DNA from: Nautiliales bacterium
Lineage (GTDB): Bacteria > Campylobacterota > Campylobacteria > Campylobacterales > JAADDX01
Length of the DNA: 64,000 nt
Direction of reading: 5' to 3'
Assembly: GCA_030826765.1 (NCBI GenBank)
Contig: JAUUDM010000016.1
Span: forward strand, 4,070 to 68,069
Under the pieces are notes generated by a model. It saw only the letters and a program-made list of their open reading frames with translations, was not told the origin of the DNA and ran no database searches. This document shows, piece by piece, positions 10,660-31,283 of this stretch. Numbering within the stretch: the stretch's first letter is position 1; the number at the start of each line of letters is the position of its first letter. The translations under genes and the position numbers were made by a program.

Positions 10660-11470
10660 ATGAAACTCTCAAAAACTTTTAAAATCATTGGATTTGGTAC
10701 TTTACTTATAATGTCTCTATTTTTTATAATATTTAATGTAATTGATGAATATAATGAATATCAAGAAGAAGTAACTCACGAAATAAATAAATATATTCTA
10801 ATAGAAAAACAAAAATTAAAAGAAAAAGTTAATTTGTTTGCTGAGGAATTTGAATATATTTTAAATAATATAAAGGCTCTAGAAAAGTTAAAAATCAATA
10901 AGCCCATATTTCTTTTTGGATGATATAAGTAACACAGCTTTATACTTTGATATAACAAAAACAATGATAAGAAAAAGTTGTGAAGTTTTTAAAAATAGAA
11001 AAGAAGATTTTTCTATTAATTTTTCATATAAAGATTTACATAATGAAGATATTAAAAGTTATTTAATTGAACAAATAGAAAAATATAATCTTCAAAATAG
11101 AGTAATAATAGAACTTCTTGAAACTGAAGCTATGGAAGATTTTAAAGAAGTTGTTAAATTTATTAAAGAAATGCATCCTTATGGAATTAAAATAGCAATA
11201 GATGATTTTGGAACAGGATATAGTAATTTTAGTTATTTAGCAGATATTAAACCAGATTATCTAAAAATAGATGGAAGTTTAGTTAAAACTATTGATAAAA
11301 ACAAAAGGTATTATACAATTGTAAAACATGTAAATGCCTTTGCACATGATCTTGGTATCCAAACTATTGCTGAATTTGTACATAATGAAGAAGTTTATAA
11401 TACATTAAAAGAAATAGGTATTGATGCTTTTCAAGGATATTATTTTGCTGAACCAAAAGAAAAAATATAA
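10660..11470 (+). pseudogene. TM-anchored, N-terminally truncated EAL-domain gene split into two frames (10660-10923 and 10916-11470); probable frameshifted or decayed gene
   Basis: ORF1 is a TM helix plus a coiled segment ending KPIFLFG*. ORF2 is in the +1 frame, starts at a TTG, and carries only the distal EAL motifs (ELLETE, DDFGTGYSNF, KIDGSL, AEFVH in place of AEGVE, QGYYFAEP). It lacks the EAL-x-R segment. The frame switch lies at the T5 run at 10913-10917. Confidence 0.5.
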
Positions 11471-12065: not shown

Positions 12066-12458
12066 TTATTGACACTCTTTACAAACTCCGTATAAATATA
12101 CTTCACTTTCATCAATCTCAGAAATTTCACTTAAATTAGGATTACAACTTGTTTTTATTTCAAAGTCATAAATTTTTCCACACTTTTTACAAATAAAATG
12201 TCCATGAGGCTCTTTTTTTATTTCAAAATGTGATTTTGCATCTTGAGGATGAATTTCTAATAAAATTCCTTCATCTTTTAGTGTATGTATATTTTTATAT
12301 ACAGTTGCTAATGAAATTGATGGAAATTTTTCTTTTATGTGTGCATACAAATCATCTATTGAAATATGTCCATTTTTTTGGATTGTTTGTAAAATTTCTA
12401 ATCTTTGTGGAGTTACTTTTAGAGGAGAGTTTTTTAATAGGTTTTGTGAATTTTTCAT
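12066..12458 (-). CDS. Fur-family metalloregulator, PerR-like by context
   Basis: 130 aa. Winged-helix segment KVTPQRLEILQTI...SLATVYKNIHTL, metal-site segment HGHFICKKCGKIYD, and a C-terminal CKEC. Lies directly downstream of a peroxiredoxin gene on the same strand. Confidence 0.8.
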   Translation of the reverse strand: MKNSQNLLKNSPLKVTPQRLEILQTIQKNGHISIDDLYAHIKEKFPSISLATVYKNIHTLKDEGILLEIHPQDAKSHFEIKKEPHGHFICKKCGKIYDFEIKTSCNPNLSEISEIDESEVYLYGVCKECQ

Positions 12459-12473
12459 AGTTTTTAAGAGTAA

Positions 12474-12492
12474 CTAAGAGAAAAACTCTTAG
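12474..12492 (-). terminator. Short hairpin overlapping the peroxiredoxin stop codon (weak terminator or attenuator before the Fur-family gene)
   Basis: Minus strand reads CTAAGAG-TTTTT-CTCTTAG (7-bp stem). There is no strong trailing U-run. Confidence 0.3.
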
Positions 12493-13193
12493 TCAGCCAT
12501 AATTTCTTCGATAGTAATATAATCACCAACTCTACCAGTCATTTGTTCTACGTCAGTATTTACTGGTAATGTTTTTTTACCAGGTCTCCATCCTGCAGGA
12601 CAAACTTCACCAGTTTTATATGCATGTTGATGTGCTTTGATTTGTCTTACGAATTCTTTTACACTTCTTCCAACAGGTGGAGCTTGTACTTCTTGAGCTA
12701 CAATTACACCATCTGGGTTGATTAAGAATCTTCCTCTTAAAGCAATTCCAGCATCTTCGATTAATACACCAAATTTTCTACTTAATTCAGTTGTAGGGTC
12801 AGCTGCAATTGTAAGTTTTAAATCTTTTAATAATGGTTCAGTTTCAGCAAATCTTTTATGGCTGAATTTTGTATCAGTTGATACTGCTAATACTTCACAT
12901 CCAAGTTCACCTTTGATTACATCTAAACTTGCATTCATAGCTGCAATTTCAGTTGGACATACAAATGTGAAATCTGCTGGGTAAAAACAAATAACTGACC
13001 ATTTACCTTTAAAATCTTCACTTGATACTTCTGTATAGTGTCCTGTCTCTGCATTATAAGCTTCTGCTTTGAATTCTGGTATATTTTTAAGTACTAATAC
13101 TCCTGCTTGAGTTGCTTCCATTTTATTCTCCTTAGTTTCTGTTTTATTTTCTACTACTTCTTCAGTAGCTTTTACTTCTCTTTCACAAGCCAT
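12489..13193 (-). CDS. ahpC: Typical 2-Cys peroxiredoxin (AhpC/TSA family); alternative start at 13121
   Basis: Peroxidatic motif FYPADFTFVCPTE and resolving-Cys motif GEVCPAGW. Two in-frame ATGs each have an AAGGAG RBS: 13193 (MACEREVK...) and 13121 (MEATQAGV...). The start in the ORF track (13250) lies inside the promoter -35 box. Confidence 0.9.
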   Translation of the reverse strand: MACEREVKATEEVVENKTETKENKMEATQAGVLVLKNIPEFKAEAYNAETGHYTEVSSEDFKGKWSVICFYPADFTFVCPTEIAAMNASLDVIKGELGCEVLAVSTDTKFSHKRFAETEPLLKDLKLTIAADPTTELSRKFGVLIEDAGIALRGRFLINPDGVIVAQEVQAPPVGRSVKEFVRQIKAHQHAYKTGEVCPAGWRPGKKTLPVNTDVEQMTGRVGDYITIEEIMAD

Positions 13194-13221
13194 TTTAGCT
13201 CCTTTGTGATTTTGTAGTGGA

Positions 13222-13250
13222 ATTATAATTAAAAAATAAAAAAATGTCAA
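13222..13250 (-). promoter_or_regulatory. Sigma70-type promoter, exact TTGACA-N17-TATAAT, for the peroxiredoxin/Fur-family pair
   Basis: On the minus strand, TTGACA is at 13250-13245, followed by a 17-nt spacer and TATAAT at 13227-13222. Confidence 0.6.
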
Positions 13251-13368: not shown

Positions 13369-13734
13369 ATGGCAAAAATTTTAATAGTTGATGATGCAAG
13401 TTTGATCAGAAGTGTGGCGCAAAAAGCTGCTGAAGAAGCAGGACATAGTGTAATTACTGCTACAAATGGTGAAGAAGGATTACAGATAACTCAAGAAAGA
13501 GATGATATAGATTTAATATTTAGTGATGTTAATATGCCAATTATGGGTGGTCTTGATATGGTAGAAAAAATAAAACAGATGGATAAATATAAATTTACTC
13601 CTATTGTTATGCTTACAACAGAATCAAATCCTGATTTAAAAGCAAGAGGAAAAGCTTTAGGTGTAAAAGCTTGGATGTTAAAACCGTTTAACAAAGCAAA
13701 ATTTTTGATGGCTATTCAAAAACTGATAGGTTAA
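13369..13734 (+). CDS. cheY: Chemotaxis response regulator CheY (single REC domain)
   Basis: 121 aa. Motifs ILIVDDAS, FSDVNMPIMGG, MLTTES and KAWMLKPF. First gene of the che operon. Confidence 0.9.
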   Translation: MAKILIVDDASLIRSVAQKAAEEAGHSVITATNGEEGLQITQERDDIDLIFSDVNMPIMGGLDMVEKIKQMDKYKFTPIVMLTTESNPDLKARGKALGVKAWMLKPFNKAKFLMAIQKLIG

Positions 13735-13738
13735 ATAT

Positions 13739-13999
13739 ATGAAAATAGAAACTGAAAAAATAGGTATTTACGAAGTAGAAAATTTAAAAAAAAGTTTATT
13801 ACAAGAACTGGAAAACTCTAATTCAATAAATATTGATTTAGAAAAAGTAAAAAAAATAGAACTTTCAGCTATTCAGTTATTTGTTTCTTTAAAAAAAAGT
13901 TGTGATGAAAAAGGTATTGTATTAACTTTTTCAAAAATAAATGAAGATATTCATAAAAATATTGAAATGAGTGGATGCGATTCTTTTTTGGGGGTATAA
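13739..13999 (+). CDS. Small STAS-domain protein (anti-sigma-antagonist fold), CheS-like by position
   Basis: 86 aa. STAS-like pattern INIDLEKVKKIELSAIQLFVSLKKSCDEKGIVLTFSKINEDIHKNIEMSG. Starts 4 nt after cheY and abuts the cheA start. Confidence 0.55.
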   Translation: MKIETEKIGIYEVENLKKSLLQELENSNSINIDLEKVKKIELSAIQLFVSLKKSCDEKGIVLTFSKINEDIHKNIEMSGCDSFLGV

Positions 14000-16051
14000 A
14001 TGGATGAATTAGATTTATTTCGTGAAGATTCAGAAGAACAACTTCAAGCAATGGAGAATGCTCTTGTTGAAGCTAATGAAAATGGTGTTGATGAAGAGAT
14101 AATAGGATCAATTTTCAGAGCTATGCATACTATTAAAGGAAGTGCCGGTATGTTTGGCTTTGATAATGTAGTTAATTTTACTCACGTTGCAGAAAATCTT
14201 ATGAGTGAAGTAAGAAATGGAAAAGTTGAGTTAGATAGTGAATTAATTGAACTATTTTTTGGGGTTAAAGATCATGTTGAAAAGTTAATTGAATTAGAGA
14301 CGGCTTCTTTACCTTTAGACGGAGAAGTTTTAGAAAAAAATTATGATTTAATAGATAAATTAACTAAAAAACTGCCTGAAAATAATTTATTAAATGAAAT
14401 AGTGTCAATTGAACAAGAAATTAAAGAAAAAAATGATACTAATGAAGACAATACAATGTGGCATTTGTCTATTAGATTACATGAGGATTTTTTCGAATCA
14501 GGCATGGATATTTTATCAATATTCAGTTTTTTAAATAGTATGGGTGAAGTAGTTATAAATATACCAATACTTAATAATATACCGAAATTAGAAGATATTT
14601 CTCCAACAAAAGCTTATATTGGATTTGAAATTGATTTTATGACAGATGTTGATAAAGATATGATAGAAGAAGCTTTTGAATTTATATTAGATGATATTGA
14701 ATTAAAAGTCTTTAGACATAATGATGAAAAAGCTGTAAAAAAATTTTTAGAAAATGTAGAAGAATGTGTATTAAAAGAATTGAATGATAATGGTATTTTT
14801 GAAATTGAAACTTCTGTTGAAAATAAAAAAGAAATTCCAAAAATAGAAGAAAAAAAAATATCAACTCCTTCTAAAAATAAAAAATCAACCAAAAATTTTT
14901 CTTTAAGAGTTGAATCAACAAAAGTTGATCAACTAATGAATCAAATTAGTGAGATGGTGATTGCAAATGCAAAAGTTGCTCAAATGGCTGAATTAAAAGA
15001 GGATAATGAATTAGAAGAAGCTTCAGAAACACTTACTCATTTACTAGAAGAAATTAGAAATTCAGTAATGAGTATAAGAATGGTTCCTGTTGAAGACTCT
15101 TTTATTAAATTTAAAAGAATCGTAACAGATACAGCTAAAAAACTTGGAAAAGATATTGAATTTATAATTACAGGTGGAGATACTGAGCTTGATAAAACCG
15201 TTATAGAAAAAATAAATGATCCACTTGTACATATGCTTAGAAACTCTATTGATCATGGTATTGAGATGCCTCCAGAGAGAATAGCTAAAGGTAAAAATCC
15301 AAAAGGAAGAATTGAATTAAAAACTTATCCTGATGCTGGAACTATTGTTATAGAAATTATAGATGATGGTGCTGGATTGGATTCTGAGAAATTAAAACAA
15401 AAAGCTATTGATAAAGGACTGATTGATAGTAATGCAAATTTAACAGATAAAGAGTGTTTTGAACTTATTTTTCATGCAGGATTTTCTACAGCTAGTCAAG
15501 TCTCTGATATCTCAGGAAGAGGTGTTGGAATGGATGTTGTAAGAAGAAATATAGAAGAGTTAAGAGGAAAAATAGAGATTGACTCCATACTTGGTAAAGG
15601 AACTAAATTCACAATTAGACTTCCGTTAACTTTAGCTATTATAGATGGATTTTTAGTACAAGTTGGAAATAGTAAATTTGTAATTCCTTTAGATATGATT
15701 CAAGAGTGTATAGAACTTACAAAAGATTACAAAGAAAAAATGAAAGGTAATAATTTTGTAAATCTTAGAGGTGAAATATTACCTATATTTGATGTAAGAA
15801 AATATTTTAATGAAGATAAAAGCTATTATGAAAGAGAAAATATAGTGGTTGTTAGATATGCAAACTATTATATTGGTCTTTTAGTAGATGAACTTTTTGG
15901 TGAATATCATACGGTTATTAAACCTTTAGGGGAAGTATTCTCTAATGTTGCTGGAATATCAGGAGGTTCAATACTTGGAAGTGGAGAAGTGGCTCTTATA
16001 TTTGATATACCCGCATTGATTGATTATTATATAAAACAACAAAGGAGTTAA
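14000..16051 (+). CDS. cheA: Chemotaxis histidine kinase CheA
   Basis: Hpt segment FRAMHTIKGSAGMFGF, N box HMLRNSIDHGIE, G1 box DDGAGLD, G2 box GRGVGMDVV, and a C-terminal CheW-like domain. Confidence 0.95.
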   Translation: MDELDLFREDSEEQLQAMENALVEANENGVDEEIIGSIFRAMHTIKGSAGMFGFDNVVNFTHVAENLMSEVRNGKVELDSELIELFFGVKDHVEKLIELETASLPLDGEVLEKNYDLIDKLTKKLPENNLLNEIVSIEQEIKEKNDTNEDNTMWHLSIRLHEDFFESGMDILSIFSFLNSMGEVVINIPILNNIPKLEDISPTKAYIGFEIDFMTDVDKDMIEEAFEFILDDIELKVFRHNDEKAVKKFLENVEECVLKELNDNGIFEIETSVENKKEIPKIEEKKISTPSKNKKSTKNFSLRVESTKVDQLMNQISEMVIANAKVAQMAELKEDNELEEASETLTHLLEEIRNSVMSIRMVPVEDSFIKFKRIVTDTAKKLGKDIEFIITGGDTELDKTVIEKINDPLVHMLRNSIDHGIEMPPERIAKGKNPKGRIELKTYPDAGTIVIEIIDDGAGLDSEKLKQKAIDKGLIDSNANLTDKECFELIFHAGFSTASQVSDISGRGVGMDVVRRNIEELRGKIEIDSILGKGTKFTIRLPLTLAIIDGFLVQVGNSKFVIPLDMIQECIELTKDYKEKMKGNNFVNLRGEILPIFDVRKYFNEDKSYYERENIVVVRYANYYIGLLVDELFGEYHTVIKPLGEVFSNVAGISGGSILGSGEVALIFDIPALIDYYIKQQRS

Positions 16052-16053
16052 TA

Positions 16054-16911
16054 TTGGAAGTAAAAGAAAAAAAATTCAATGATAATGAAATGATAGTATC
16101 TATGACTGATGCGAAAGGAATCATTACTTATGCTAATGATATATTTTGTAAAATGGCAGAATATGATTTAGAAGAGGTAATAGGAAAGCCACATAATATG
16201 TTAAGACATCCTGATATGCCAAAAGTTGTTTTTAAATTAGTATGGAAAAATCTTTTAGCTGGTAGAAATTTTTATGGTTTTGTAAAAAATAAGACAAAAA
16301 ATGGAAATTATTATTGGGTAAAAGCATTTTTTCAACCTATCATAAAAAATGGAAGAGTTGATAAGTTAATATCATATAGACAATCAGTAAACGATTATAC
16401 AAAAGAGATTATTTCACCTGTTTACAAACAACTTTTAGATATAGAATCAAAAGAAGGTATAGTAGGAAGTGAGAAATTTTTAAATGATTTTTTAAATAAA
16501 AGAAATTTAAGTTATATGGAGTTTATAGATAGGTTAAGTGTTGGAAAATCTATAACAAATCCAGCTGTTTTTGATATTAATTATGAAAGTTTTTATAACG
16601 ACCATATAATTTTTAAAGAGCATATAAAGCATCAATGTGAATTAAAAAACTTCGATGTAAAAGTAACTGATAGTTGTTGTTGTAGATTTGGAAAATGGTT
16701 AGATAGTGTAAAAAATGAAGATTATACTAATCATCCAAGTTGGAAAAATATTCATTATGCTCATGATGATTTTCATAATAAATTAAAAGAGTATGTATCA
16801 AGTATGAAAAACTCAAATTCTACTTTATCTAATAAGTTATTAGAAGATATAGAACAAGATACAGAAAAAATTTTTGATAATCTTCAAAAAGTAATTGATG
16901 AGAGCCGTTAA
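16054..16911 (+). CDS. Stand-alone sensor: Aer/CetB-type PAS domain plus a C-terminal CZB (chemoreceptor zinc-binding) domain
   Basis: The PAS domain is very close to the Aer pattern (TDAKGIITYANDIFCKMAEYDLEEVIGKPHNMLRHPDMPKVVF...NGNYYWVKAFFQPI). The CZB motif H-xx-F-x22-C-x-F-G-x-W-x21-H-xxx-H reads DHIIF...CRFGKWL...HDDFH. TTG start with AAAGGAG 6 nt upstream. Confidence 0.75.
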   Translation: MEVKEKKFNDNEMIVSMTDAKGIITYANDIFCKMAEYDLEEVIGKPHNMLRHPDMPKVVFKLVWKNLLAGRNFYGFVKNKTKNGNYYWVKAFFQPIIKNGRVDKLISYRQSVNDYTKEIISPVYKQLLDIESKEGIVGSEKFLNDFLNKRNLSYMEFIDRLSVGKSITNPAVFDINYESFYNDHIIFKEHIKHQCELKNFDVKVTDSCCCRFGKWLDSVKNEDYTNHPSWKNIHYAHDDFHNKLKEYVSSMKNSNSTLSNKLLEDIEQDTEKIFDNLQKVIDESR

Positions 16912-16955
16912 ATAATATAAAAATAGAAGAATTAGAAAAAAAAGGAGAATAAAAA

Positions 16956-18740
16956 ATGAAATCTAAAGAACAATTAGAAGAAATAAAAAAAGTTTTAAAA
17001 GAAATATCAAAAGGAAATTTTGATGTTTTTTTAAGTAGTGAGAATAAATGTTTTGATGAATTTAAAGATTTAAAAGAAAATTTATCAAATTTAGAAAGTG
17101 ATATTAAAGATGTAAATGAGGCTGCATTAAAAGGTGAAATTGATGTAAGAATTGATGCTAGGAAATATGAAAATGGATTTAGAAAAATAGCTGAAGCTTT
17201 AAATTATACTATAGATTCAAATACTGGCGCTGTTAGAGAAATGGGGCAAGTAATTAGAAAATTGGCAAGTGGTGATTTATCTGCAAAAGTTACAAATAAT
17301 TATTCAGCAGATTTAAATGAAGTAAAAGAAGCTATTAATTATTTAGCAGATACTTTAAATAATCTAAGAAAAGATGCTGTACTTATTAGTGACGCAGTAT
17401 CAAAAGGTGAACTTAGTGTTAGAATAGATACATCTAAATATAAAGGAGATTTCACTTTAATACATAAAACTACTAATTTTACAATAGAAAGTGTTAATAA
17501 ATCATTTAAAGAAATTGCAGATGCATTAGTTAAGTTTGGAGAGGGGCAGTTTAAATATAGAATTACAAATGATTATAATGGAGATTTTAATACAATAAAA
17601 GAGTCTTTTAATCAAGCTTTTATTATTACGAATACTATTTTTGAAGAAGTTATTATGATGAAAGAAGCTGTTGAAAATGGAAATTTAGATGTTAGAGCTG
17701 ATATAAGTAAATATAAAGGCGATTTTATAGAATTAGTAGGTACTCTGAACTTAATGGTAAATATTACAAAAGATGCTTTAAATGATATTAATGAGAATTT
17801 AGAAAAACTAAAAATGGGAGATTTAACTACACAAATTACAAAAGATTATAAAGGAGCATTTGGTATTACAAAAGATGCTTTTAATAATTTTGTAGAAAAT
17901 TTAACTTCTATTACTACACAAATTAAAACAGGTGCTAATGAAATTACAACAGCAGCAAATACAGTAAGTAGTGCTTCTCAATCACTTTCAACAGGAGCAA
18001 CTGAGCAAGCAAGTAGTTTAGAAGAAACGAGTGCAGCTATTGAAGAAATGAGTGGCTCTATCAATGAAACAGCCAAAAATGCTATTAAAACAAATGAACT
18101 TGCAGAAGAGAGTGCAAAAATGTCTCTTGAAGGTGGAGAAGCTGTTGATAAAACAGTTGATGCTATGAAAACTATTAGTGAAAGAATTAAAATAATTGAA
18201 GATATTGTATATCAAACAAATTTACTTGCACTTAATGCAGCAATTGAAGCAGCTAGAGCAGGAGAGCATGGAAAAGGATTTGCAGTTGTGGCAGCTGAGG
18301 TTAGAAAATTAGCAAAAAGAAGTCAAATTGCAGCAGGTGAGATTAGTGAAATAACAAGAGATAGTCTAGATATTTCTCAAAAAGCTGGAACTTTAATCTC
18401 TACAGTAGTTCCAAAAATTCAAGAAACAGCAAATTTAATTAAAGATATTGCAAATGCAGCAAAAGAACAAGATATTGCAATTTCTCAAATCACATCAGCT
18501 ATGAGTCAGTTAGACCAAGTAACACAAGCAAATGCTTCATCTTCTCAAGCTTTAGCTGCGTCAGCTAAACAATTAAATGGACAAGCAAACTCTTTAACAG
18601 AAATGATTTCATTCTTTAAATTAGCAGATAGTCATGTAGGTGGTGGTTTTAATGCAGGTAAAGTTTCTCCACAAACAGTATCAAAACCAGCTAAAAACCT
18701 AAATAGTGAATTTGATTTAAGAGATTTTGATAGATATTAA
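16956..18740 (+). CDS. Soluble methyl-accepting chemotaxis protein with an N-terminal tandem HAMP-like array (no TM segment)
   Basis: 594 aa with no hydrophobic stretch. Three tandem ~88-aa repeat pairs are followed by the MCP signalling domain ([22 protein letters not shown]...[34 protein letters not shown]). Confidence 0.9.
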
Positions 18741-18741
18741 T

Positions 18742-19251
18742 ATGAAAAATAGAGATTACGAAGATGATTTAGACCTTAGTCTAAATCAAGATGGAGAACA
18801 ATATCTATTTTTCTCTTGTAACAATGATTTTTATGCAATTGATGCTTTAAGAGTGGTGGAGATTATAGAGTATCAACTGTATACTAAAGTTCCTATGATG
18901 AAAAGATTTGTCAAAGGAATTACAAATGTAAGAGGTGATTTGATAGCTGTAGTTGATTTAAAAGATTTTTTTGGATTTGGTGAAACTATCAAAGATAAAA
19001 AAACATCTATGATTATACTAAATGTAAAAAATAGTGATAATGAACTTAAAATTGCTATTATTATCGATGAGGTGTTTGAAGCTAAATATTTAGGCGAAGA
19101 AGATATAAAAAGTGCACCAGAATTTGGTGTTAAAATAGATTCAAAGTTTATAAAAAATATGTGTCAATATAATGGAAATTATATACCTATTTTAGATATT
19201 GATAAATTATTAAATGTAAAACAATTATCTAAAATTGAATTACATCAATAA
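18742..19251 (+). CDS. cheW: Chemotaxis coupling protein CheW
   Basis: CheW-like domain (YLFFSCNNDFYAIDALRVVEI...ITNVRGDLIAVVDLKDFFG). The ATG lies 1 nt after the MCP stop. The TTG start in the ORF track (18727) would overlap the MCP. Confidence 0.9.
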   Translation: MKNRDYEDDLDLSLNQDGEQYLFFSCNNDFYAIDALRVVEIIEYQLYTKVPMMKRFVKGITNVRGDLIAVVDLKDFFGFGETIKDKKTSMIILNVKNSDNELKIAIIIDEVFEAKYLGEEDIKSAPEFGVKIDSKFIKNMCQYNGNYIPILDIDKLLNVKQLSKIELHQ

Positions 19252-19260
19252 AGGTTTTGT

Positions 19261-20202
19261 ATGATAGAAGATATTAAAACAAATGATGATTTTAATGAAG
19301 AAGATGATGAATTAGATATTATAAAGTTAGTTTCTACTAATGCAAATAATTCTAATCAATATCTGATTTTTAATGGTTCAAATGGTGAACTTTATGCCAA
19401 AAATGTTTCTAAAATCGAGGAGTTAATTGTATATAAAGATTTAGAAATTGCTCATAACTCAACGGGTTCGCTTATTATAGGAACAGCTGATGTAAGAGGT
19501 CAGATGACACCTATTGTGAATTTCGATGAGTGGTTTGGAAATAAAGTTTTAGATGATAGTGAATATGAACTTGTAGTATTAGCTAGTTATGGTGGATATA
19601 GATTTGGGATTGTTGTAAAAAGTGTTGAGTATATTGTGGCTATTGAGCCAGAAGATATGGTTGATAATTCTATATCAAATCCAAAAACTACATTTATAAC
19701 AAAAGTAAAAGTTGGAAGTGAAAATAGACTTTGTACTATTTTTGATAGTGATAAAATGCTTTTAGATATTTTTGAAAATAGTGAAAAAAGTAATTTAGAA
19801 AAAATTTCAAATGTTACATCTAAGAGAGTTAGTGAAAAATTAGTTCTATTTGCTGATGATTCTAAATTTATTAGAGAAATGGTGAGAAAATTTTTTGTAG
19901 CTATGGATCTTAATTATAAAATTTTTGAAGATGGAAAATATTTGATTGAAGAACTTAAAAAATTAAATCCTAATGATATAGGACTTATTATTACTGATTT
20001 AGAGATGCCAAATCTTGGAGGTAAGGAAGTAATTAAATTTATTAGAGAAAATTTAAAATTTAATGATATAAATATAATAGTTCATACAAATATGTCAAAT
20101 AATATTATGGAAGAAGATTTATTAAAAGCAGGTGCAAATCAAATTATAAACAAAATTGATATGAAAGAATTATCGCAGAGTATTAAAAAGAATATAAGAT
20201 AA
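19261..20202 (+). CDS. cheV: CheV (CheW-like domain fused to a C-terminal REC domain)
   Basis: CheW-like N-terminal half (YLIFNGSNGELYAKNVSKIEE...). REC half with LFADDS, ITDLEMPNLGG and VHTNMS. Confidence 0.9.
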   Translation: MIEDIKTNDDFNEEDDELDIIKLVSTNANNSNQYLIFNGSNGELYAKNVSKIEELIVYKDLEIAHNSTGSLIIGTADVRGQMTPIVNFDEWFGNKVLDDSEYELVVLASYGGYRFGIVVKSVEYIVAIEPEDMVDNSISNPKTTFITKVKVGSENRLCTIFDSDKMLLDIFENSEKSNLEKISNVTSKRVSEKLVLFADDSKFIREMVRKFFVAMDLNYKIFEDGKYLIEELKKLNPNDIGLIITDLEMPNLGGKEVIKFIRENLKFNDINIIVHTNMSNNIMEEDLLKAGANQIINKIDMKELSQSIKKNIR

Positions 20203-21008
20203 TGAACAATTTAATCTTAAATGATAAAGAATTCAAAGTTTTTCAAAAAATTATTTTTGATGAGACTGGAATTAGTTTGAGTGATTCTAAAAAGATGTTA
20301 GTTCAAAGCAGATTATTAAAAAGAATTGCTTTTTATAAGATGAATAGTTTTTTAGATTATTTGAGATATATTCAAATAAATAAAAAAGAAAAAATAGAAA
20401 TGATAAATCAAATAACTACTAATGAAACTTATTTTTTTAGAGAAATGAAACATTTTGAATTTATTGAAAAGTTAGCTAAAAATATGGATATTAAAAGTAG
20501 GTTAAGAATATGGAGTGCAGCGTCTTCGGTAGGTGCTGAAGCTTATAGCCTTGCTATGGTAGTTGATGAATATTTAAGAAAAGATCAATGGGAAATAGTT
20601 GGTACAGATATAAATACAGAAGTTATTAAAAAAGCTAGAATTGGTCTTTATCCTGAAAGTTGGGTGAAAAAAATACCATTAAAATATAGACAAAAATATT
20701 GTTTAAAAGGAAAAGGGAATTATGAAGGACAATTTCTAGTAGATAGAAAACTAATCACTAATATAAAATTTGAAAAAGGTAATTTATTGGTAAAACAAGA
20801 AGGAATAGGAAAGTTTGATGTTGTTTTTTTAAGAAATGTTTTGATATACTTCAATGATGAAATAAAAAAACGCGTTATTCATAATGTGATTTCAAATTTA
20901 AAAATCGGTGGTTATTTTATTATTAGTTTGACAGAGAATTTAAAAAACTTAGATATAAAAGAGTTAGTTCAATTAGATACTTCTATATATCAAAAGGTAA
21001 GTAAATGA
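20202..21008 (+). CDS. cheR: Chemotaxis protein methyltransferase CheR
   Basis: ETYFFRE motif, SAM-binding segment RIWSAASSVGAEAYSLAM, and VFLRNVLIYF. Confidence 0.9.
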   Translation: MNNLILNDKEFKVFQKIIFDETGISLSDSKKMLVQSRLLKRIAFYKMNSFLDYLRYIQINKKEKIEMINQITTNETYFFREMKHFEFIEKLAKNMDIKSRLRIWSAASSVGAEAYSLAMVVDEYLRKDQWEIVGTDINTEVIKKARIGLYPESWVKKIPLKYRQKYCLKGKGNYEGQFLVDRKLITNIKFEKGNLLVKQEGIGKFDVVFLRNVLIYFNDEIKKRVIHNVISNLKIGGYFIISLTENLKNLDIKELVQLDTSIYQKVSK

Positions 21009-21817
21009 AAATAATGGTTGTTTCGAGCAAAGGTGGAGTTGGTAAAAGTACAATCTCTATGCAATTAATTGCTCCTTATCTTTATATACGTAATGATAAA
21101 AAACCTATTAAATTTTATGAATGTGATGATGAAAATAGTGATAGTTTGAGTTTTGGTGCATCTAATTTAATAGATAGAAAGTTAATAAAAGTGGATGTTC
21201 CTATCTTAAGAGAAGAACTTCTTGAAATTTTTTCTAAACCTGAGTTTACTTGTATGGATATTGGGGGAAATAAATCTACTACTATGGTTTTAGATGCCTT
21301 AGATTTAAGTGGGGCTATTCATTTTGTAGATTTAGCAGTTATTCCTATTTTAGATGGGGAACAAGATGCTATTAATGCAAGTGTTGTTTATACTCAAATA
21401 AAAAGTATGAATCCTAATATTAAATTTTTGTTTGTTTTAAATAGATGTAAAAATGAGAGATTTTTAGAGTATCAGTTTGAAAATTATTTTGGAGATGTGA
21501 GAGGAATTTTCAGTGAAAAATATGCTGTAAAAAACTATCTTTTTGATAATGATAAAGATAATTATATAGCTTTATTAGATGATGATGTTATAAAATATAG
21601 TAGAAAGTTTGGTCTTACTATTTATGAAATTGCAAAACAACAAAGAGATTTTATTCCTGAACTTAAAGTAAAAGTAGAAAAAATGACAAATGAACAAGAA
21701 GCAAAACTATTAAGTTTTAAGAATTATGTAAATAAAAGTGCAATAAAATATTATGAAAATGTCTTAATAAAAGGATTTAAAAAAATTGATAAAATATCAC
21801 AAAAGGGTAAATTATGA
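21005..21817 (+). CDS. ParA/MinD-family P-loop ATPase embedded in the che operon
   Basis: Deviant Walker A in MKIMVVSSKGGVGKSTIS, with candidate A'/B motifs ECDDEN and FTCMDIGG. Overlaps cheR and the next ORF by 4 nt on each side. Confidence 0.75.
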   Translation: MKIMVVSSKGGVGKSTISMQLIAPYLYIRNDKKPIKFYECDDENSDSLSFGASNLIDRKLIKVDVPILREELLEIFSKPEFTCMDIGGNKSTTMVLDALDLSGAIHFVDLAVIPILDGEQDAINASVVYTQIKSMNPNIKFLFVLNRCKNERFLEYQFENYFGDVRGIFSEKYAVKNYLFDNDKDNYIALLDDDVIKYSRKFGLTIYEIAKQQRDFIPELKVKVEKMTNEQEAKLLSFKNYVNKSAIKYYENVLIKGFKKIDKISQKGKL

Positions 21818-22731
21818 TAACAAGTAAGATTCAAGAATTTGTAGCATTTCTAGCTTCATCTAAAAGAGTGTTAATATTAAGTAATAGAGATATGTCACAA
21901 TTTATGGATATATTTGATAATTTTGAAATGGCTATTTTTGAAGGTATTAATGAAAATAGTATAAAAAATTTAAGTTTTAATTTTACAAAAAATCATATAG
22001 ATATTGTAATTTTTGCACCAGATGAAGATTTTGAAGATATTCTTTCTATGTATGGAAAAATTAAAGGAATATCTAATGAGACAGAAATACTTTTAATATT
22101 ACCTGAATATTGTAAAACAGATGAAATAGTTGAGATAGTTGATACTTATGATGTTGTAATGGGAGGAAATTTTTCAAGAGAAGTTTTATTAAATAGATTA
22201 TTTAGAGTCCTTAGTGCTCAATATGCAGTGAATAATGTTAATTTTGTATCAGAAGCTCTTTTTAAAGATGTTGAAAATAATAATAAAAAAGAACTTGAAG
22301 AGTTCTTGGATGTTTATGAAGGTGCTGTAATATTTTTGATAGATAATTTAGCTGAATTAATTGATCAATTAAAAAATGGAAATTTATCACAAGAATTACT
22401 TCAAAGGATTGGTGAAGAACTTATGGAAGTTCATGAAATATTTTCTATTCATAACTATACAAGAAAAGTAGCTCCAATATTTCAAAAATTTTCAGAATAT
22501 TTAAAAAATTTAAAATTAGAGGATATAGATGTTGAAAATTTAGAAGCTTTTAATTATTTAACAGATATTTTAGAAGATATAAATATTTATTTAAAAGATT
22601 ATTTTATTGATAGAATTTTTCAGGATGTTTATATGTTTCAGCATTCTCTTGAAAGTAATATAGAGTTTTTAGAAGCTAAATTAGCCGGAAAAGAAGATAG
22701 TGATGATGAAGATAGTTTAGAGTTTTTTTAA
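21814..22731 (+). CDS. Unknown che-operon protein X1: degenerate receiver-like N-domain, helical (Hpt-like?) C-domain and an acidic tail ending LEFF
   Basis: 305 aa. Shares 4-nt and 1-nt overlaps with the parA-like gene and cheB. C-terminus reads ...GKEDSDDEDSLEFF. Paralogous to the ORF at 23772-24902 over the C-terminal ~130 aa. Confidence 0.65.
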   Translation: MITSKIQEFVAFLASSKRVLILSNRDMSQFMDIFDNFEMAIFEGINENSIKNLSFNFTKNHIDIVIFAPDEDFEDILSMYGKIKGISNETEILLILPEYCKTDEIVEIVDTYDVVMGGNFSREVLLNRLFRVLSAQYAVNNVNFVSEALFKDVENNNKKELEEFLDVYEGAVIFLIDNLAELIDQLKNGNLSQELLQRIGEELMEVHEIFSIHNYTRKVAPIFQKFSEYLKNLKLEDIDVENLEAFNYLTDILEDINIYLKDYFIDRIFQDVYMFQHSLESNIEFLEAKLAGKEDSDDEDSLEFF

Positions 22732-23702
22732 TGATTAAAGTATTTATTATTGATGATTCTATATTAGTCAGAACAAAAATTATTAATATTTTACAAGATA
22801 AAGAAATTAATGTAATTGGAGATGCAGGAAATCCTATTGATGCTTTAAATATTTTTAAAAAAGTTGGCCTTCCTGATTTATTTATATTAGATATAGAAAT
22901 GCCAAAAATGAATGGTGTAGAATTTTTAGAAAAAATAAACACTCAAAGACCAACACCAGTGGTTATTATTTCTTCTTTTGTAGATGAAATTGTAAAAAAT
23001 AAATTATGTAATATAAATTCTACAATAGAAATGTTGCCTAAAACAAAAATGCAAAATATGAATAATTTTTCTAAAGATTTAATTAATAAAATTCATTTTC
23101 TAACAAATTCTAATATAAAAAAGCCTTCAAATTTACCATCATCAAAAATTATTTCTATTGGTTCTTCCACAGGAGGTGTTCAGATATTAGAAGAGATTGT
23201 TAGTAAAATAAATTATGGGCATAAAGGTATAGTGATTGTTCAGCATATGCCCGAAAGTTTTACTGCTTCTTTTGCTTCAAGACTTAATTCTCTGACAAGG
23301 AGTGAAGTAGTAGAAGCAAGAGAGGGAGATATTATTAAAGATTCTAAAATCATAATAGCAAAAGGCGGTATCCATTTAGAAGTGTATCATGCAAAAGATG
23401 GTTTTAGAGTTAGATTTAAAGATTATAAAAAAGTAAATTTTCATAAGCCAAGCGTAAATGTTTTATTTAAGAGTGTTGCAGAAAATGTTGGCAAAAGAGC
23501 TATGGGAATAGTTTTGACAGGTATGGGAGATGATGGAGCGATTGGTTTAAAAATGATGAGAGAAGCTGGAGCTCTTACTTATGCACAAGATGAAAAGTCA
23601 TCAATTGTTTATGGAATGCCAAAGGTAGCTTTAGAGATCGGTGGGGCTATGGAATCTTTGAATATTAATCAAATTGTAGAAAAAATAAATAATTTTAAAT
23701 AA
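22731..23702 (+). CDS. cheB: Chemotaxis methylesterase/deamidase CheB (REC + esterase domains)
   Basis: REC domain with VFIIDDS and ILDIEMPKMNG. Esterase domain with IGSSTGG, VQHMP and TGMGDDG. Confidence 0.9.
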   Translation: MIKVFIIDDSILVRTKIINILQDKEINVIGDAGNPIDALNIFKKVGLPDLFILDIEMPKMNGVEFLEKINTQRPTPVVIISSFVDEIVKNKLCNINSTIEMLPKTKMQNMNNFSKDLINKIHFLTNSNIKKPSNLPSSKIISIGSSTGGVQILEEIVSKINYGHKGIVIVQHMPESFTASFASRLNSLTRSEVVEAREGDIIKDSKIIIAKGGIHLEVYHAKDGFRVRFKDYKKVNFHKPSVNVLFKSVAENVGKRAMGIVLTGMGDDGAIGLKMMREAGALTYAQDEKSSIVYGMPKVALEIGGAMESLNINQIVEKINNFK

Positions 23703-23742
23703 TATTTACTAAAAGTAAATAAATTTTTATTTTTAGTAAATA
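23703..23742 (+). terminator. AT-rich hairpin after cheB (12-bp inverted repeat); weak terminator or processing site
   Basis: TATTTACTAAAA (23703-23714) pairs with TTTTAGTAAATA (23731-23742). A nested alternative is ATTTACT-AAA-AGTAAAT. Confidence 0.35.
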
Positions 23743-23771
23743 TTATAGTAATAAAATAATTGGAGGATACT

Positions 23772-24902
23772 ATGTTTATAGATGTAAAAGAGATAAAACC
23801 TTTAGTATTAGAAAATATTCAAAATCAAGGTGTGGTTCTTTTATCAAATAAAAAAAAATTTATTAAAGAATTTAAAAAAAATTTTTCTAAATTATCACAT
23901 AAAATAAAAATTTTGGATGATGAAACAAAAGGTTTACATGAGATATTAAAAAATGAAGATTTATATGATATTATAATTACAAATTTTAAAAATGGCTATA
24001 AAATAAAACGAATTATGCCCCATAAAAAGGTTTTAGTTGTTGATTATAAAGAAAATTTTGATTTTAAATATATAATTGTTGATGAATTTGTATCTAAACC
24101 AGTTGATAAAGTTATTTTTTATAATGCTATGTATTCTTTAACAAAAGTTATTGCAGATGAAAAAGAATTAAAATATTATCTAAACTCTTTAGAAACTGAA
24201 ATATCAGAATTGAATTGTAATATGTGTAGAACTTTAAATAAAAATATTGATGATATAAATTTATTAAGAAAAGAACTCTTTTCCCTTATGCATCATAATT
24301 GTGAATTTCAGTATAACTCTTCTCTATGTGGAATTGAGGAAAAAATTAAAGAAAAAGAAAAAATAGAAAATGATAAATATGAAAATCATAATATGAGATT
24401 TACCCTTGATGAAGATAAAAAAATAGATGCCCAAACTTTTGTATCAGAATTAAATGATATTGATTTTGAAAGAGTTGATATATTAAAAGAACATTTTGGA
24501 GAATTTACAATATTTCTAAATAATGCCTATACTATGGATTATTTAGAATTTTATGAAAATAAAGATTATATAGTATCTATGCTTAATGAATTATATCAAT
24601 CTATAAATAGATTTTATAGATTTGAGATTTTGGCTATTACATTTAAAGATTTTGCTGATTTTATAAATAATTTAACATTAGAAGATTTACAAAAAAGTGA
24701 TAATAAGGAAATGTTTCTAGATTCTTTAATTGCTATTATTGATGATGTAATTGATTGGATTGATATAATTTTCTTTTTGAAAACTACAGATAATATAAAT
24801 TATCTTGATGCTTCTTTTTCTAGTAATTGTGAACAAATTAAAGAAATATTTAAAAATGAAGAAGTATTAGAAGATGATATGGATGATTTAGAGTTTTTTT
24901 AA
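23772..24902 (+). CDS. Unknown che-operon protein X2: receiver-like N-domain, long linker, helical C-domain and an acidic tail ending LEFF (paralogue of X1)
   Basis: GGAGG lies 6 nt before the ATG at 23772 (the TTG start at 23760 in the ORF track is rejected). C-terminus reads ...EVLEDDMDDLEFF. The final 15 nt (tttagagtttttttaa) are identical to the X1 3' end. Confidence 0.65.
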   Translation: MFIDVKEIKPLVLENIQNQGVVLLSNKKKFIKEFKKNFSKLSHKIKILDDETKGLHEILKNEDLYDIIITNFKNGYKIKRIMPHKKVLVVDYKENFDFKYIIVDEFVSKPVDKVIFYNAMYSLTKVIADEKELKYYLNSLETEISELNCNMCRTLNKNIDDINLLRKELFSLMHHNCEFQYNSSLCGIEEKIKEKEKIENDKYENHNMRFTLDEDKKIDAQTFVSELNDIDFERVDILKEHFGEFTIFLNNAYTMDYLEFYENKDYIVSMLNELYQSINRFYRFEILAITFKDFADFINNLTLEDLQKSDNKEMFLDSLIAIIDDVIDWIDIIFFLKTTDNINYLDASFSSNCEQIKEIFKNEEVLEDDMDDLEFF

Positions 24903-24919: not shown

Positions 24920-26389
24920 TTATCTTCTTCTATTTCTGTCACCACTTCTTGAAGAGTTTCTACCACCTCTATCACCACCACCGTTTCTTGATGAAGAATT
25001 TCTACTTCTGTTACCACCTCTGTAACCACCTCTACTTCTTCTTCCTCTATCTCCCCCTCTATCATTTTTGGCTCTTGATTCAATTCTTGAAATTTCATTC
25101 ATATTTTTACCGATTCTTTCGTTTCCGGCAATTTTCATTTCATCTTCAAGTAGAGTCGCAAGTTTATAAGCGATAGTAGATAAGTCATATTCTTCTTTTA
25201 ATTGTTCAATTAATGTAATAGAATTTTCACTTACATCAGCTTGTTCGATTTTTTCAAGAAGTTCGTTGCTTTTTTTACCTTTTACTTCATGGATTGAAGG
25301 TATCTCTTTTGCGATTAGTTTGCTTCCTACTGATTTTTGAATTTTTAATAAACTTCTAAATTCAGCCGGAGTTACCAAAGAGATAGCCAAACCTTCTTTT
25401 CCGGCTCTTCCGGTTCTTCCGATTCTGTGCACATAACTTTCAGAATCAAATGGAATATGGTAGTTAAATACATGAGTTACATCATTTACATCAAGCCCTC
25501 TCGCCGCCACATCTGTCGCTACTAAAATTTCAAGGTCTTTTTTGAACGCTCTGATTGTTTCTTCTCTTTGTCTTTGTTCCATATCTCCGTGAAGACCCTT
25601 AGCTGCATAACCTTGAGAAACAAGCATAGTAGTAATTCTATCTACTTCACTTTTCATCCTACAGAAAATTATAGCTTTATTTGGGTCTTTATAGTCAAGT
25701 AGTCTGATTAGTGCTTCATCTCTTTCAAACTCTTCAACTACATAAAAACTTTGAGTGATTTTTGCATTTGTTACTTCGCTTTTTGTAATTGTGATAAATT
25801 CTGGCTCAACCAAGATTCTTTTTGCCAAATCTTTGATAGCTTGAGGCATTGTTGCACTAAATAAAAGTGTTTGTCTGTCACTTGGCATAAATGTGAATAT
25901 TTCTTTGATATCGTCTAAAAATCCCATATCAAGCATTTCATCTGCTTCATCTAATACTACATATTTTGGTGCTATATCAATTTTACCACCTCTTAGTAAA
26001 TCCAAAAATCTACCTGGTGTAGCTACTATTACACTTGCTTTTTCGATATGTTTAAGTTGTCTTGAATAACTTGTTCCACCATAAACTGTAGCTGTGTTGA
26101 TTCCCAAAAATTTTCCAAATCTGAAAATTTCATCACTAACTTGTGTTGCAAGTTCTCTTGTTGGCACGATAATTACTGCTTCTACACTTCCGTCAAGTTC
26201 TAATTTATTTAAAATTGGAAGTCCAAATGCTGCTGTTTTTCCTGTTCCTGTTTGTGCTTGTCCTACGATATCTTTTCCAGCTAAAACTACCGGAATTGCT
26301 TTTTCTTGAATCGGACTTGGTTCTTTAAATCCTGCTGTTTCGATTGCTTTGTTTAGTTCGTCTCTGAAATTAAATTCTGTAAATGTCAT
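24920..26389 (-). CDS. deaD: DEAD-box ATP-dependent RNA helicase with a C-terminal RGG/RS-rich tail
   Basis: Q motif region FKEPSPIQ, motif I AQTGTGKT, motif II DEAD, SAT, HRIGRTGRAG, and the tail RGGDRGRRSRGGYRGGNRSRNSSSRNGGGDRGGR. Confidence 0.9.
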   Translation of the reverse strand: MTFTEFNFRDELNKAIETAGFKEPSPIQEKAIPVVLAGKDIVGQAQTGTGKTAAFGLPILNKLELDGSVEAVIIVPTRELATQVSDEIFRFGKFLGINTATVYGGTSYSRQLKHIEKASVIVATPGRFLDLLRGGKIDIAPKYVVLDEADEMLDMGFLDDIKEIFTFMPSDRQTLLFSATMPQAIKDLAKRILVEPEFITITKSEVTNAKITQSFYVVEEFERDEALIRLLDYKDPNKAIIFCRMKSEVDRITTMLVSQGYAAKGLHGDMEQRQREETIRAFKKDLEILVATDVAARGLDVNDVTHVFNYHIPFDSESYVHRIGRTGRAGKEGLAISLVTPAEFRSLLKIQKSVGSKLIAKEIPSIHEVKGKKSNELLEKIEQADVSENSITLIEQLKEEYDLSTIAYKLATLLEDEMKIAGNERIGKNMNEISRIESRAKNDRGGDRGRRSRGGYRGGNRSRNSSSRNGGGDRGGRNSSRSGDRNRRR

Positions 26390-30513: not shown

Positions 30514-31283
30514 AATTTAACTCCTACTTCAGCAAATGCCCCTTTGAATTGTAATTTTGTTTCGTTATCCCCATCTTCACCTAAAATATCTTGATATCTA
30601 TATCCAGCTGATGCAGAAATATCTAAAATAGGTAAAGGTAGATGATATTTTAAAGCTCCAATATAATCATAATAGTGTCCTGTTCCACTAACATTTAAAT
30701 ATTTACCTTGTGCTTCTATACTAAATCCAAAAAGTTGCATAGTCTCAGCTCTTGCATAAAGATATGGAATAGGCTCTGTAGATGAAGCTGATGAAGTTTG
30801 TGTTGAAGTTTTTACAGTTGTATCTGTACTTAATACATTTACACCAATTCCTGCTTCTAAATCAACAATAACTGGTTTAAATTCATAAAAAAGTGTAGCA
30901 TCATAACTATTGATATCTAAATCTGTATGTACTCTATCAGAAAGAGATATACTTTTACCAAACACTTTAAGTTTTCCACTTGCTATACCGTCACCACTTG
31001 TTGAATATTTTGTATATTGTAATTTCACATTTGGAATAAGAGGAATTGGATGAATAAATTTTACCCAAATATAAGGTTCTGTTTCATCTTGTAATCCAAG
31101 GTTACCAGTATTATCATTTCCATCAGTTTCGGCAGATTTATTATTCATATAATTAATTGTATCACCACTTTTTACATAACCACTAATATTTTCTTGCCAA
31201 ACACCAGCACCTGCACTAATACTTAAAAAGTCGGCACTTGCAAAACTTCCTGCTACTAATAAACTTAAAGCTAATTTTTTCAT
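30510..31283 (-). CDS. Outer-membrane beta-barrel protein (signal peptide, alternating beta pattern, C-terminal Phe)
   Basis: Signal peptide MKKLALSLLVAGSFASA, Gly/Tyr-rich amphipathic strands, and a C-terminus ending ...FAEVGVKF. Confidence 0.6.
   Translation of the reverse strand: MKKLALSLLVAGSFASADFLSISAGAGVWQENISGYVKSGDTINYMNNKSAETDGNDNTGNLGLQDETEPYIWVKFIHPIPLIPNVKLQYTKYSTSGDGIASGKLKVFGKSISLSDRVHTDLDINSYDATLFYEFKPVIVDLEAGIGVNVLSTDTTVKTSTQTSSASSTEPIPYLYARAETMQLFGFSIEAQGKYLNVSGTGHYYDYIGALKYHLPLPILDISASAGYRYQDILGEDGDNETKLQFKGAFAEVGVKF

Follow-up and report, generated by a model that had tools for sequence, protein, structure and literature searches.

An F8-class chemosensory operon of an uncultured Campylobacterota member with a transmembrane-less receptor, a divergent ParA/MinD-like ATPase and two pseudo-receiver proteins that share an acidic C-terminal tail

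Chemosensory systems of the F8 class are listed for Sulfurimonas autotrophica, Sulfuricurvum kujiense and Hydrogenimonas thermophila, and the rows given for them contain CheA, CheW, CheV, CheY, CheB and CheR but no CheZ and no CheD (Mo et al. 2022, PMC9321776 S3 Table). The cognate receptor type of the class has 34 heptads (34H) (Mo et al. 2022, PMC9321776; P. syringae study, PMC11253619). In cluster II of P. syringae pv. tomato (PMC11253619) and in the F8 cluster of M. alcaliphilum (PMC7184735), a single in-cluster 34H receptor with a C-terminal pentapeptide is found together with a CheR of the pentapeptide type; these receptors are transmembrane, and their arrays stand ~20 nm tall on the membrane. 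Here we describe an operon at positions 13369-24902 of a 64,000-nucleotide stretch of DNA (the window) from an uncultured member of the Campylobacterota (Nautiliales bacterium; assembly GCA_030826765.1, contig JAUUDM010000016.1, positions 4,070 to 68,069 of the forward strand), whose DNA is low in GC (~26%). Judged from its sequence, the operon belongs to the F8 class, and it shares with the two clusters above the single 34H receptor, the pentapeptide and, probably, the CheR type. It differs from them in that its receptor has no transmembrane segment and in that it encodes a ParA-like ATPase and two proteins ending in LEFF, called X1 and X2 here; no ParA-like or LEFF proteins were reported for those clusters.

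The operon is made up of 12 open reading frames (ORFs), all on the + strand, which by the ORF list and their Pfam domains form a complete chemotaxis-type signalling operon in the order cheY, a STAS gene, cheA, a PAS+CZB sensor gene, the gene for the methyl-accepting chemotaxis protein (MCP), cheW, cheV, cheR, the ParA-like gene, X1, cheB and X2. The junctions are overlaps of 1-4 bp or gaps of ≤57 bp. On its upstream side the operon is bordered by a divergent ahpC / Fur-family (perR-like) pair; a convergent DEAD-box helicase gene closes it off downstream. The original prediction had described 12 co-directional, abutting genes in this order, a single operon with an embedded ParA/MinD-type ATPase, and the lack of any canonical CheY-P phosphatase, and all of this was confirmed by the ORF coordinates and the Pfam searches: CheZ, CheC, CheX and FliY were found neither in the operon nor among the 40 other window ORFs scanned. 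The same 40 ORFs, which are housekeeping, cyclic di-GMP (c-di-GMP) or WD40 genes, include no other che, MCP or flagellar gene.

The F8 assignment is based on three independent proxies, namely the heptad number of the receptor, the identity of CheY and the gene order. The heptad number had been proposed as a check. Aligned with Tsr, a 36H receptor (6s1k, 3zx6, 1qu7), the MCP (16956-18740, +) has a 3+4-residue deletion in the N-terminal arm and a matching 3+4 deletion in the C-terminal arm, symmetric about the hairpin tip; because seven residues are deleted per arm, the receptor is of the 34H type. CheY, a single-domain response regulator of 121 aa (13369-13734, +; Pfam Response_reg E=2e-23), is 72% identical to the F8-CheY of S. 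autotrophica and 70% identical to that of S. kujiense but only 39% identical to the F7-CheY of A. butzleri, the reference sequences being those of the supplementary FASTA of Mo et al. 2022. The che proteins of the window are nearest to the Sulfurimonas/Sulfuricurvum type. CheA (14000-16051, +) is full-length, with Hpt, dimerisation, HATPase and CheW-like P5 domains (Pfam; NCBIfam CheA E=3e-130, below the equivalog cut-off), and it is accompanied by CheW (18727-19251, +; Pfam CheW E=2.5e-28), by CheV with CheW and REC domains (19261-20202, +; Pfam CheW, Response_reg) and by CheB with REC and methylesterase domains (22731-23702, +; Pfam).

In the published descriptions (PMC9321776, PMC9239204), the Campylobacterota F8 clusters have the same CheY/CheA/CheW/CheV/CheR/CheB set, the same STAS gene between cheY and cheA, an in-cluster 34H receptor and interspersed hypothetical genes, and the content and order of the window operon agree with them (Y, STAS, A, M, W, V, R, hypotheticals, B; no CheD, CheZ or CheC). 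These descriptions classify the clusters but are silent on the ParA-like gene, X1/X2 and the PAS-CZB gene. Regarding class, the earlier suggestion that the operon matches no known cluster was mistaken, since it is the catalogued F8 type of Sulfurimonas and relatives. The further suggestion of an undescribed variant stands in part: as far as the libraries searched and the searchable literature show, the ParA-like ATPase and the functions of X1 and X2 are undescribed, whereas the F8 class is known and the STAS protein, the split PAS sensor and the transmembrane-less receptor have precedents.

The neighbourhood is conserved, as had been suggested for examination, at ~40 loci of Campylobacterota type. 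The same gene order is found in L001, L002, L004, L007-L043, L044 and L046, where protein identity is 30-80%; since the order is kept in dozens of independent loci, the operon is not a chance juxtaposition. Annotated with the window proteins, the loci read cheY-STAS-cheA-[PAS/CZB]-MCP-cheW-cheV-cheR-parA-like-X1-cheB-X2, and the 12-gene order is identical around the closest metagenomic relatives of X1 (L001 and L002; 44-72% identity). When an alignment of the ParA-like family was searched against one genome per GTDB species, 37 loci were returned (best match, 64% identity), all 37 of which are in Sulfurimonas, Sulfuricurvum, Arcobacteraceae (including a complete Halarcobacter metagenome-assembled genome (MAG)) or unclassified MAGs of Campylobacterota type. 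Mo et al. 2022 (PMC9321776) give F7 as the only class of the cultured Arcobacter species that they covered; the finding of the window-type cluster in Arcobacteraceae MAGs indicates a distribution wider than this listing. Some genes vary. Twelve related loci have the PAS-CZB gene and others do not, X1 is missing from five lineages, the ParA-like gene and X1 are found together in ~28 loci, and the gene 3' of cheB encodes either an X2-type protein or a REC-GGDEF protein. The F8 cluster of L044 (1136-11071) encodes X1, X2 and a soluble poly-HAMP MCP but has no ParA-like gene, therefore X1/X2 and the ATPase are separable.

X1 (21814-22731, +) and X2 (23760-24902, +) have no Pfam match. The database copy of X2, P0004, is 376 aa long, which makes the ATG at 23772 the probable true start. 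In AlphaFold2 (AF2) models both proteins are predicted to consist of an N-terminal alpha/beta domain, a five- or six-helix bundle and a disordered tail, with a predicted local distance difference test (pLDDT) score of 79 for X1 and 69.5 for X2. The N-terminal domain of X1 (aa 1-140) is a pseudo-receiver followed by a five-helix bundle (aa 147-290) and a disordered acidic tail; in X2, a disordered insert lies between the pseudo-receiver and the bundle, and an acidic tail again ends the protein. Foldseek against the PDB returned REC domains only (Spo0F, DivK, PhoP, RssB-N and CheY; TM-score ~0.7, root-mean-square deviation 2.5-3.6 Å, and 2.5-3 Å for X2), a result that is restricted to REC because the whole-protein comparison is dominated by the N-terminal domain. 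An iterative hidden Markov model (HMM) search started from either protein first merges the two and then drifts into CheY, CheB and CheV. When the last 15 residues were removed, hhalign still aligned the X1 group with the X2 group (97.4% probability, E=1.5e-11, 272 columns), so the two are true paralogues and not mere sharers of a tail, which strengthens the original proposal of two LEFF-tailed paralogues.

Of the residues of a functional REC domain, the X1 group keeps neither the acidic pair nor the Thr nor the Lys, and the phospho-acceptor position is Ala in the X1 and Asn in the X2 of the window. All catalytic REC residues are kept in some X2 orthologues (for example, L016 and L017) and in a wider family, for which an exhaustive HMMER search gave 3355 representatives at E≤1e-3, 697 at E≤1e-10 and 104 at E≤1e-30. 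In 47 of the 52 family representatives sampled a bona fide Response_reg domain was found, in some together with PAS, and in none of the 52 did a Pfam domain cover the C-terminal bundle; NCBIfam sees REC only, and a search of PDB sequences with the bundle profile returned designed coiled coils only. Alignment and residue loss thus show X1 and X2 to be degenerate, non-phosphorylatable members of a large, uncharacterised family composed of REC, a novel bundle and an acidic tail. Members of this family outside the phylum stand beside che-type genes in Desulfurispira natronophila and in a cluster with MCP-CZB, CheY and a CheB-CheR fusion. In D. natronophila (L048:2059-11518) a canonical REC-bundle member ending in ...DLDIFF is divergent from a che cluster of cheY, MCP, an 87-aa ORF without a Pfam domain in the STAS position, cheA, a stand-alone HATPase_c gene, cheD and cheB. 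An Hpt-like nature of the bundle was rejected; the semi-conserved His of DIHY[FL]D is Tyr in the X1 and Asn in the X2 of the window, and no Pfam Hpt was found at E≤1. CheO of C. jejuni was set aside as a relative of X1/X2 by its published description, in which homologues are reported mostly from Campylobacter, Helicobacter and Wolinella (host-associated).

X1 ends in DSDDEDSLEFF-COOH (22696-22728, +) and X2 in EDDMDDLEFF-COOH (24870-24899, +), both at the very end of the ORF. Throughout the family this tag takes the form of an acidic run followed by [LIVM][ED][FL]F-COOH. In the 145 best family representatives the acidic run always precedes the tail, and the last four residues are LEFF in 71, LELF in 21, LDFF in 7 and LDLF in 6, the rest being conservative variants; the tail is equally constant in the Campylobacterota loci. 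Sister F8 clusters contain GGDEF ORFs of 244-245 aa that end in ...N/ENDDLEFF (L017:4259-4993, L025:7604-8341 and L028:2606-3340). These proteins have no X-type bundle, and two of them have a PAS remnant. Because GGDEF proteins carry the tail without the bundle, the tail is a module in its own right, probably acting in trans. With no ParA-like gene in L044, L048 or L049, the ParA-like protein cannot be the sole receptor of the tail. Among the chemosensory contexts examined, the recurring components are a single-domain CheY-like protein and CheB; around the stand-alone family member of L045 neither is found nearby.

These features suggest that the tail may be a portable docking peptide that would tether X1 and X2, and a diguanylate cyclase in the sister clusters, to a common pathway partner. 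By analogy with the peptides of CheZ and FliM, a surface of a REC domain (CheY~P or CheB) is the leading candidate for this partner, although we hold to it only tentatively. In the NWETF pentapeptide system, the receptor carries the tag for the enzymes; the proposed LEFF code would be the mirror image, with the effectors tagged. It is conceivable, although we regard it as speculative, that the tail is an unrecognised portable tethering code by which response regulators, pseudo-receivers and a diguanylate cyclase dock on one F8 component (the REC of CheY~P/CheB, or the ParA-like protein), and that the bundle is a new output domain linking arrays to c-di-GMP turnover or to array positioning.

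The original prediction stated that the only receptor of the operon has no hydrophobic segment, and indeed none was found in the MCP, in which the maximum 19-residue Kyte-Doolittle mean is 1.06. By Pfam the protein consists of HAMP and MCPsignal domains only (HAMP, four HAMP_2 units and MCPsignal), with at least five HAMP units and no PAS domain. Its C-terminal pentapeptide DFDRY (18723-18737, +) follows a ~30-aa unstructured linker and fits the published xZxxZ definition, and the terminus [LI][DN]LR[DENQ]F[DEN][RS][YF]-COOH is kept in 20 of 21 orthologous MCPs. The best PDB match of CheR (20202-21008, +; Pfam CheR_N, CheR) is Salmonella CheR (1BC5), with an ungapped alignment through the beta-subdomain loop (RGTGPHEG / KGKGNYEG), and CheR is probably of the pentapeptide-dependent type. 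The pentapeptide has been called a fundamental feature of Aer2-like receptors (PMC7184735), and the MCP has all three Aer2-like traits, the x[HFYW]xx[HFYW] C-terminal tether, the transmembrane-less state and multiple HAMP units. Aer2 of P. aeruginosa and V. cholerae (ancestral F7) likewise is poly-HAMP, lacks a transmembrane segment, carries a pentapeptide tether and is encoded within its own che cluster. However, Aer2 is a 36H receptor with an in-line haem-PAS, whereas the window MCP is 34H and has no PAS, an Aer (FAD)-type PAS being located on a separate, CZB-fused protein.

This protein is a stand-alone sensor (16054-16911, +; Pfam PAS_3+CZB). Its PAS domain (aa 9-127; 16078-16434, +) matches the PAS of E. 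coli Aer (8dik) with E=2e-30, including the PHNMLRHPDMP motif, and its CZB zinc-binding domain (aa 184-241; 16603-16776, +) scores 31.9 bits against a Pfam cut-off of 29.4 and matches the 3His/1Cys motif Hxx[WFYL]...Cx[LFMVI]Gx[WFLVI]...HxxxH. Both the Aer type of the PAS and the split of the PAS-CZB sensor from the receptor had been predicted correctly. In C. jejuni, CetB, a separate Aer-type PAS protein, acts on the neighbouring MCP CetA (PMC2628428). The arrangement is the same here, with an Aer-type PAS on its own polypeptide encoded beside an MCP that lacks its own sensor, but CetA is anchored in the membrane and has one HAMP domain, and CetB lacks a CZB domain, whereas the window receptor is soluble and poly-HAMP and its PAS protein has CZB. 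The fusion of an Aer-type PAS to a CZB with an intact 3His/1Cys motif, together with a soluble poly-HAMP partner, is new in the window. The orthologous receptors have an in-line PAS (L023), a periplasmic 4HB with transmembrane segments (L042) or no recognised sensor domain, and some of the sensor-less ones adjoin a PAS-CZB gene as in the window. These modular sensors support an input in trans where the PAS-CZB gene is present. The receptor, which has no sensor of its own, would thus receive its input from the PAS-CZB protein as CetA does from CetB; the Aer-type FAD-PAS may report redox or energy state, and the CZB may respond to zinc and oxidants.

The STAS-only protein (86 aa; 13739-13999, +; Pfam STAS and STAS_2) is invariably encoded between cheY and cheA across the loci, and the Ser of its KI[DE]xSxIQL motif is kept in the orthologues. 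CheS of S. meliloti, which consists of STAS alone and whose gene adjoins cheY1 and cheA, binds CheA and modulates the binding and dephosphorylation of CheY1 (PMC12654446). The two are alike in domain and position, each being a single STAS domain encoded beside cheY and cheA, and it is plausible that the STAS protein is a counterpart of CheS that probably binds CheA and tunes the traffic between CheA and CheY. In L005 (1-1733; also in L006 and L019) a gene for a 1255-aa protein with SBP, PAS and SpoIIE (PP2C phosphatase) domains lies directly upstream of cheY-STAS; in this variant of the cluster the receptor is transmembrane, and X1 is missing from its place between the ParA-like gene and cheB. 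The 1255-aa protein is a candidate regulator of the conserved Ser. The STAS gene, the split Aer-type PAS and the transmembrane-less poly-HAMP receptor had each been considered non-canonical for a che operon, a view that the precedents of CheS (PMC12654446), of CetB/CetA (PMC2628428) and of Aer2 in the sister class F7 (PMC7184735) do not support.

The ParA-like gene (21005-21817, +; 270 aa) occupies a fixed position and has 4-bp overlaps with cheR and X1, which argues for co-translation with the che proteins. The deviant Walker A motif SSKGGVGKST, with the signature lysine, and the Walker B-like CxDIGGN are invariant in 12 diverse homologues, and IPxLDGEQD is a family-specific motif. The Pfam ParA and CbiA matches are just under the gathering scores, and the NCBIfam matches to ParA_partition (E=3e-10) and StbB (E=4.5e-6) are sub-threshold. 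By phmmer against the PDB no solved relative was found, and a profile search of the PDB matched only the P-loop, of MipZ and Ras-type proteins; the protein is therefore divergent from the solved ParA/MinD proteins, with which it shares a P-loop match only. With more than 339 homologues at ~60% identity, it appears to represent a very divergent ParA/MinD subfamily, found only in Campylobacterota-type loci. A ParA/MinD-family ATPase is also encoded within the che operon alongside a soluble receptor in R. sphaeroides CheOp3 (TlpT/PpfA), but there the ATPase gene adjoins the receptor gene and CheA is split (CheA3/CheA4), whereas in the window CheA is single and full-length and the ATPase gene is between cheR and X1, three genes (cheW, cheV and cheR) downstream of the MCP gene. 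The che operon of Vibrio likewise encodes an ATPase of this family, ParC, whose partner ParP is encoded downstream of it and has a C-terminal CheW-like array-integration domain; no ParP-like protein is encoded in the window operon, and X1 has no CheW domain. Judging from PpfA and ParC, the ParA/MinD-like ATPase probably positions or partitions the signalling array.

Where such an array would be located can be explained in two ways, and we regard each of them as possible but doubtful. The receptors could form a free cytoplasmic two-layer array like that of CheOp3; the ATPase would partition this array on the nucleoid in the manner of PpfA, and X1 or the receptor N-terminus would be the ATPase-activating adaptor. 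The soluble receptor, the embedded ParA/MinD-type ATPase with intact motifs and the PpfA/TlpT precedent agree with this explanation, as do the translational coupling of X1 to the ParA-like gene and the co-occurrence of the two. In addition, the non-F3 classes of Campylobacterota usually have no receptors beyond the one or two that their own cluster encodes (Mo et al. 2022, PMC9321776), so a transmembrane receptor of matching length that could anchor the array may be missing. However, the ParA-like gene is not beside the receptor gene, unlike ppfA-tlpT, CheA is unsplit, and X1 has no recognisable basic N-terminal activating peptide. Moreover, Aer2 arrays adjoin the inner membrane, at ~35 nm from it, although Aer2 has no transmembrane segment (PMC7184735), so the lack of such a segment does not alone predict a free cytoplasmic array. 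An equally good rival is a tall membrane-proximal polar array like that of the ancestral F7 Aer2, for which the ATPase would be a pole-targeting factor in the manner of ParC. The Aer2-like architecture of the MCP, the sister relationship of F7 and F8 and the retention of the ParA-like gene in transmembrane-receptor variants of the cluster speak for it, whereas the lack of a ParP-like partner with a CheW-type domain and the strong divergence of the ATPase, which is under the Pfam ParA and CbiA thresholds, speak against it. The transmembrane-receptor lineages L005/L019 and L042, which keep the gene, and L044, in which a soluble receptor, X1 and X2 occur without it, also weigh against the CheOp3-like array and make the proposed tie between the ParA-like ATPase and a soluble receptor less than strict.

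It is unlikely that X1 and X2 are the missing CheY-P phosphatases, CheZ/CheT-like proteins whose C-terminal peptide would capture CheY~P. The idea arises from the lack of CheZ, CheC and CheX genes in the operon and from the helical bundle, flexible acidic linker and hydrophobic C-terminus of each protein, and it has a precedent in S. meliloti CheT, an unannotated, CheZ-like helical protein encoded at the 3' end of the che operon that acts on CheY-P and binds CheR (PMC12654446). Compared by description, X1 and X2 differ from CheT in having no DxxxQ and in having an N-terminal pseudo-receiver. No DxxxQ or other acid/amide pair is common to the X1 and X2 groups, the DRIFQ of X1 being unconserved (K or Y in orthologues; missing in X2); no CheZ or Hpt signal was found at E≤1, and there was no PDB profile match. 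The wider family consists of true response regulators, which speaks for an output or adaptor role of the bundle and not for a phosphatase, and a CheZ/CheT-like phosphatase was rejected as the leading idea for want of a conserved DxxxQ. It is very improbable that the operon belongs to F7, the class reported as the sole one in Arcobacter, instead of F8. Its low GC resembles that of Arcobacter, the best NCBIfam match of the MCP is Vibrio Aer2, and Arcobacteraceae MAGs carry the same cluster, but the receptor is 34H and not 36H, cheD is missing, the gene order is unlike cheYARDB, and CheY is far closer to the F8-CheYs (70-72%) than to F7-CheY (39%).

Taken together, we consider it likely that this is an F8 operon with input in trans from the PAS-CZB protein, a CheS-like STAS protein, an array-positioning ATPase, docking-tagged X1 and X2, and a non-flagellar output. 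By homology, the poly-HAMP 34H receptor would couple through CheW and CheV to the full-length CheA, which would phosphorylate F8-CheY, CheV and CheB, and the receptor would be adapted by CheR and CheB, probably tethered by the DFDRY pentapeptide. Regarding the output, the FliM-binding residues are absent outside F3, F14 and CheYz proteins according to published work, and REC-GGDEF, HD-type and GGDEF genes often flank the related clusters, which suggests that the output does not act directly on the flagellar switch. It is more likely to be an array-associated regulation, including c-di-GMP turnover. In L012, L013, L014 and L035-L038 a gene for a ~420-aa REC-GGDEF protein follows cheB or X2, and in L004 (13864-16376) REC-REC-PAS-HD and GGDEF genes follow the F8 cluster.

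Several points weigh against parts of this scheme. The class call is based on proxies, namely heptad number, CheY identity and gene order. The regular expression for CZB is unmatched in the more distant PAS-CZB orthologues (L020, L022 and L032-L038). The helical bundle has no relative detectable by Pfam at E≤1 or by a PDB profile search. The link between the ATPase and receptor topology is loosened by the same lineages that keep the gene with a transmembrane receptor (L005/L019 and L042) or lack it with a soluble one (L044). As for the tail, its likeness to the C-terminal peptide of CheZ (and to the N-terminal peptide of FliM) is an assumed one, and a reading of the tail as an MCP-type pentapeptide was rejected because [DE]-L-E-F-F has Leu at position 2 and fails xZxxZ.

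The rest of the window is dense in c-di-GMP genes, encoding a CHASE4-PAS-GGDEF-EAL protein (6896-10264), an EAL-only protein (10916-11470; 184 aa with a TTG start, possibly truncated), a dCache-GGDEF-EAL protein (44323-46386) and a protoglobin-GGDEF protein, that is, a globin-coupled sensor (61914-63185). Two proteins of the WD40 beta-propeller fold, a family uncommon in bacteria, are encoded at 1991-4117 and 53045-54511, the second with a PKD domain. The peroxiredoxin (AhpC/TSA) ORF upstream of the operon (12066-13250, -) would have a ~50-aa N-terminal extension if it starts at TTG; it adjoins the Fur-family (PerR-like) regulator gene, and a 118-bp intergenic region separates it from cheY, from which it diverges. 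The DEAD-box helicase (24920-26389, -) has a long RGG/SR-rich low-complexity C-terminal tail (…RGGDRGRRSRGGYRGGNRSRNSSSRNGGGDRGGRNSSRSGDRNRRR). Among housekeeping genes, the ORFs at 37321-38238 (-) and 30510-31283 (-), of 305 and 257 aa, respectively, have no Pfam match at E≤1e-5. Genes are on the + strand at 2-24.9 kb, on the - strand at 24.9-44.3 kb and on the + strand beyond, and the sign of the GC skew flips at ~24.9 kb and ~44.3 kb, exactly at these switches; because the flips coincide with the orientation switches, the skew follows the coding strand and not an origin or terminus. No rRNA or tRNA was found in the window by Rfam, and a promoter/terminator scan was uninformative in this AT-rich DNA, with 83 sites found against 85.6 expected.

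In conclusion, the operon as a whole is ordinary, being an instance of a catalogued class in which four supposedly non-canonical features have precedents. Experimental work on F8 systems has dealt solely with transmembrane receptors; the system of the Campylobacterota, with its transmembrane-less receptor and its own ParA/MinD ATPase, therefore offers a tractable test of how array positioning co-evolves with receptor topology. X1 and X2 bring to light a large family of response regulators, with hundreds of clusters at 50% identity and members beyond the phylum; neither Pfam nor NCBIfam nor the PDB contains its output domain, and its near-invariant C-terminal tag is shared with a diguanylate cyclase. 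If this tag is a docking motif, it would connect outputs with chemosensory arrays in a new manner, and its sequence may offer an easy means of recognising such outputs in genomes.

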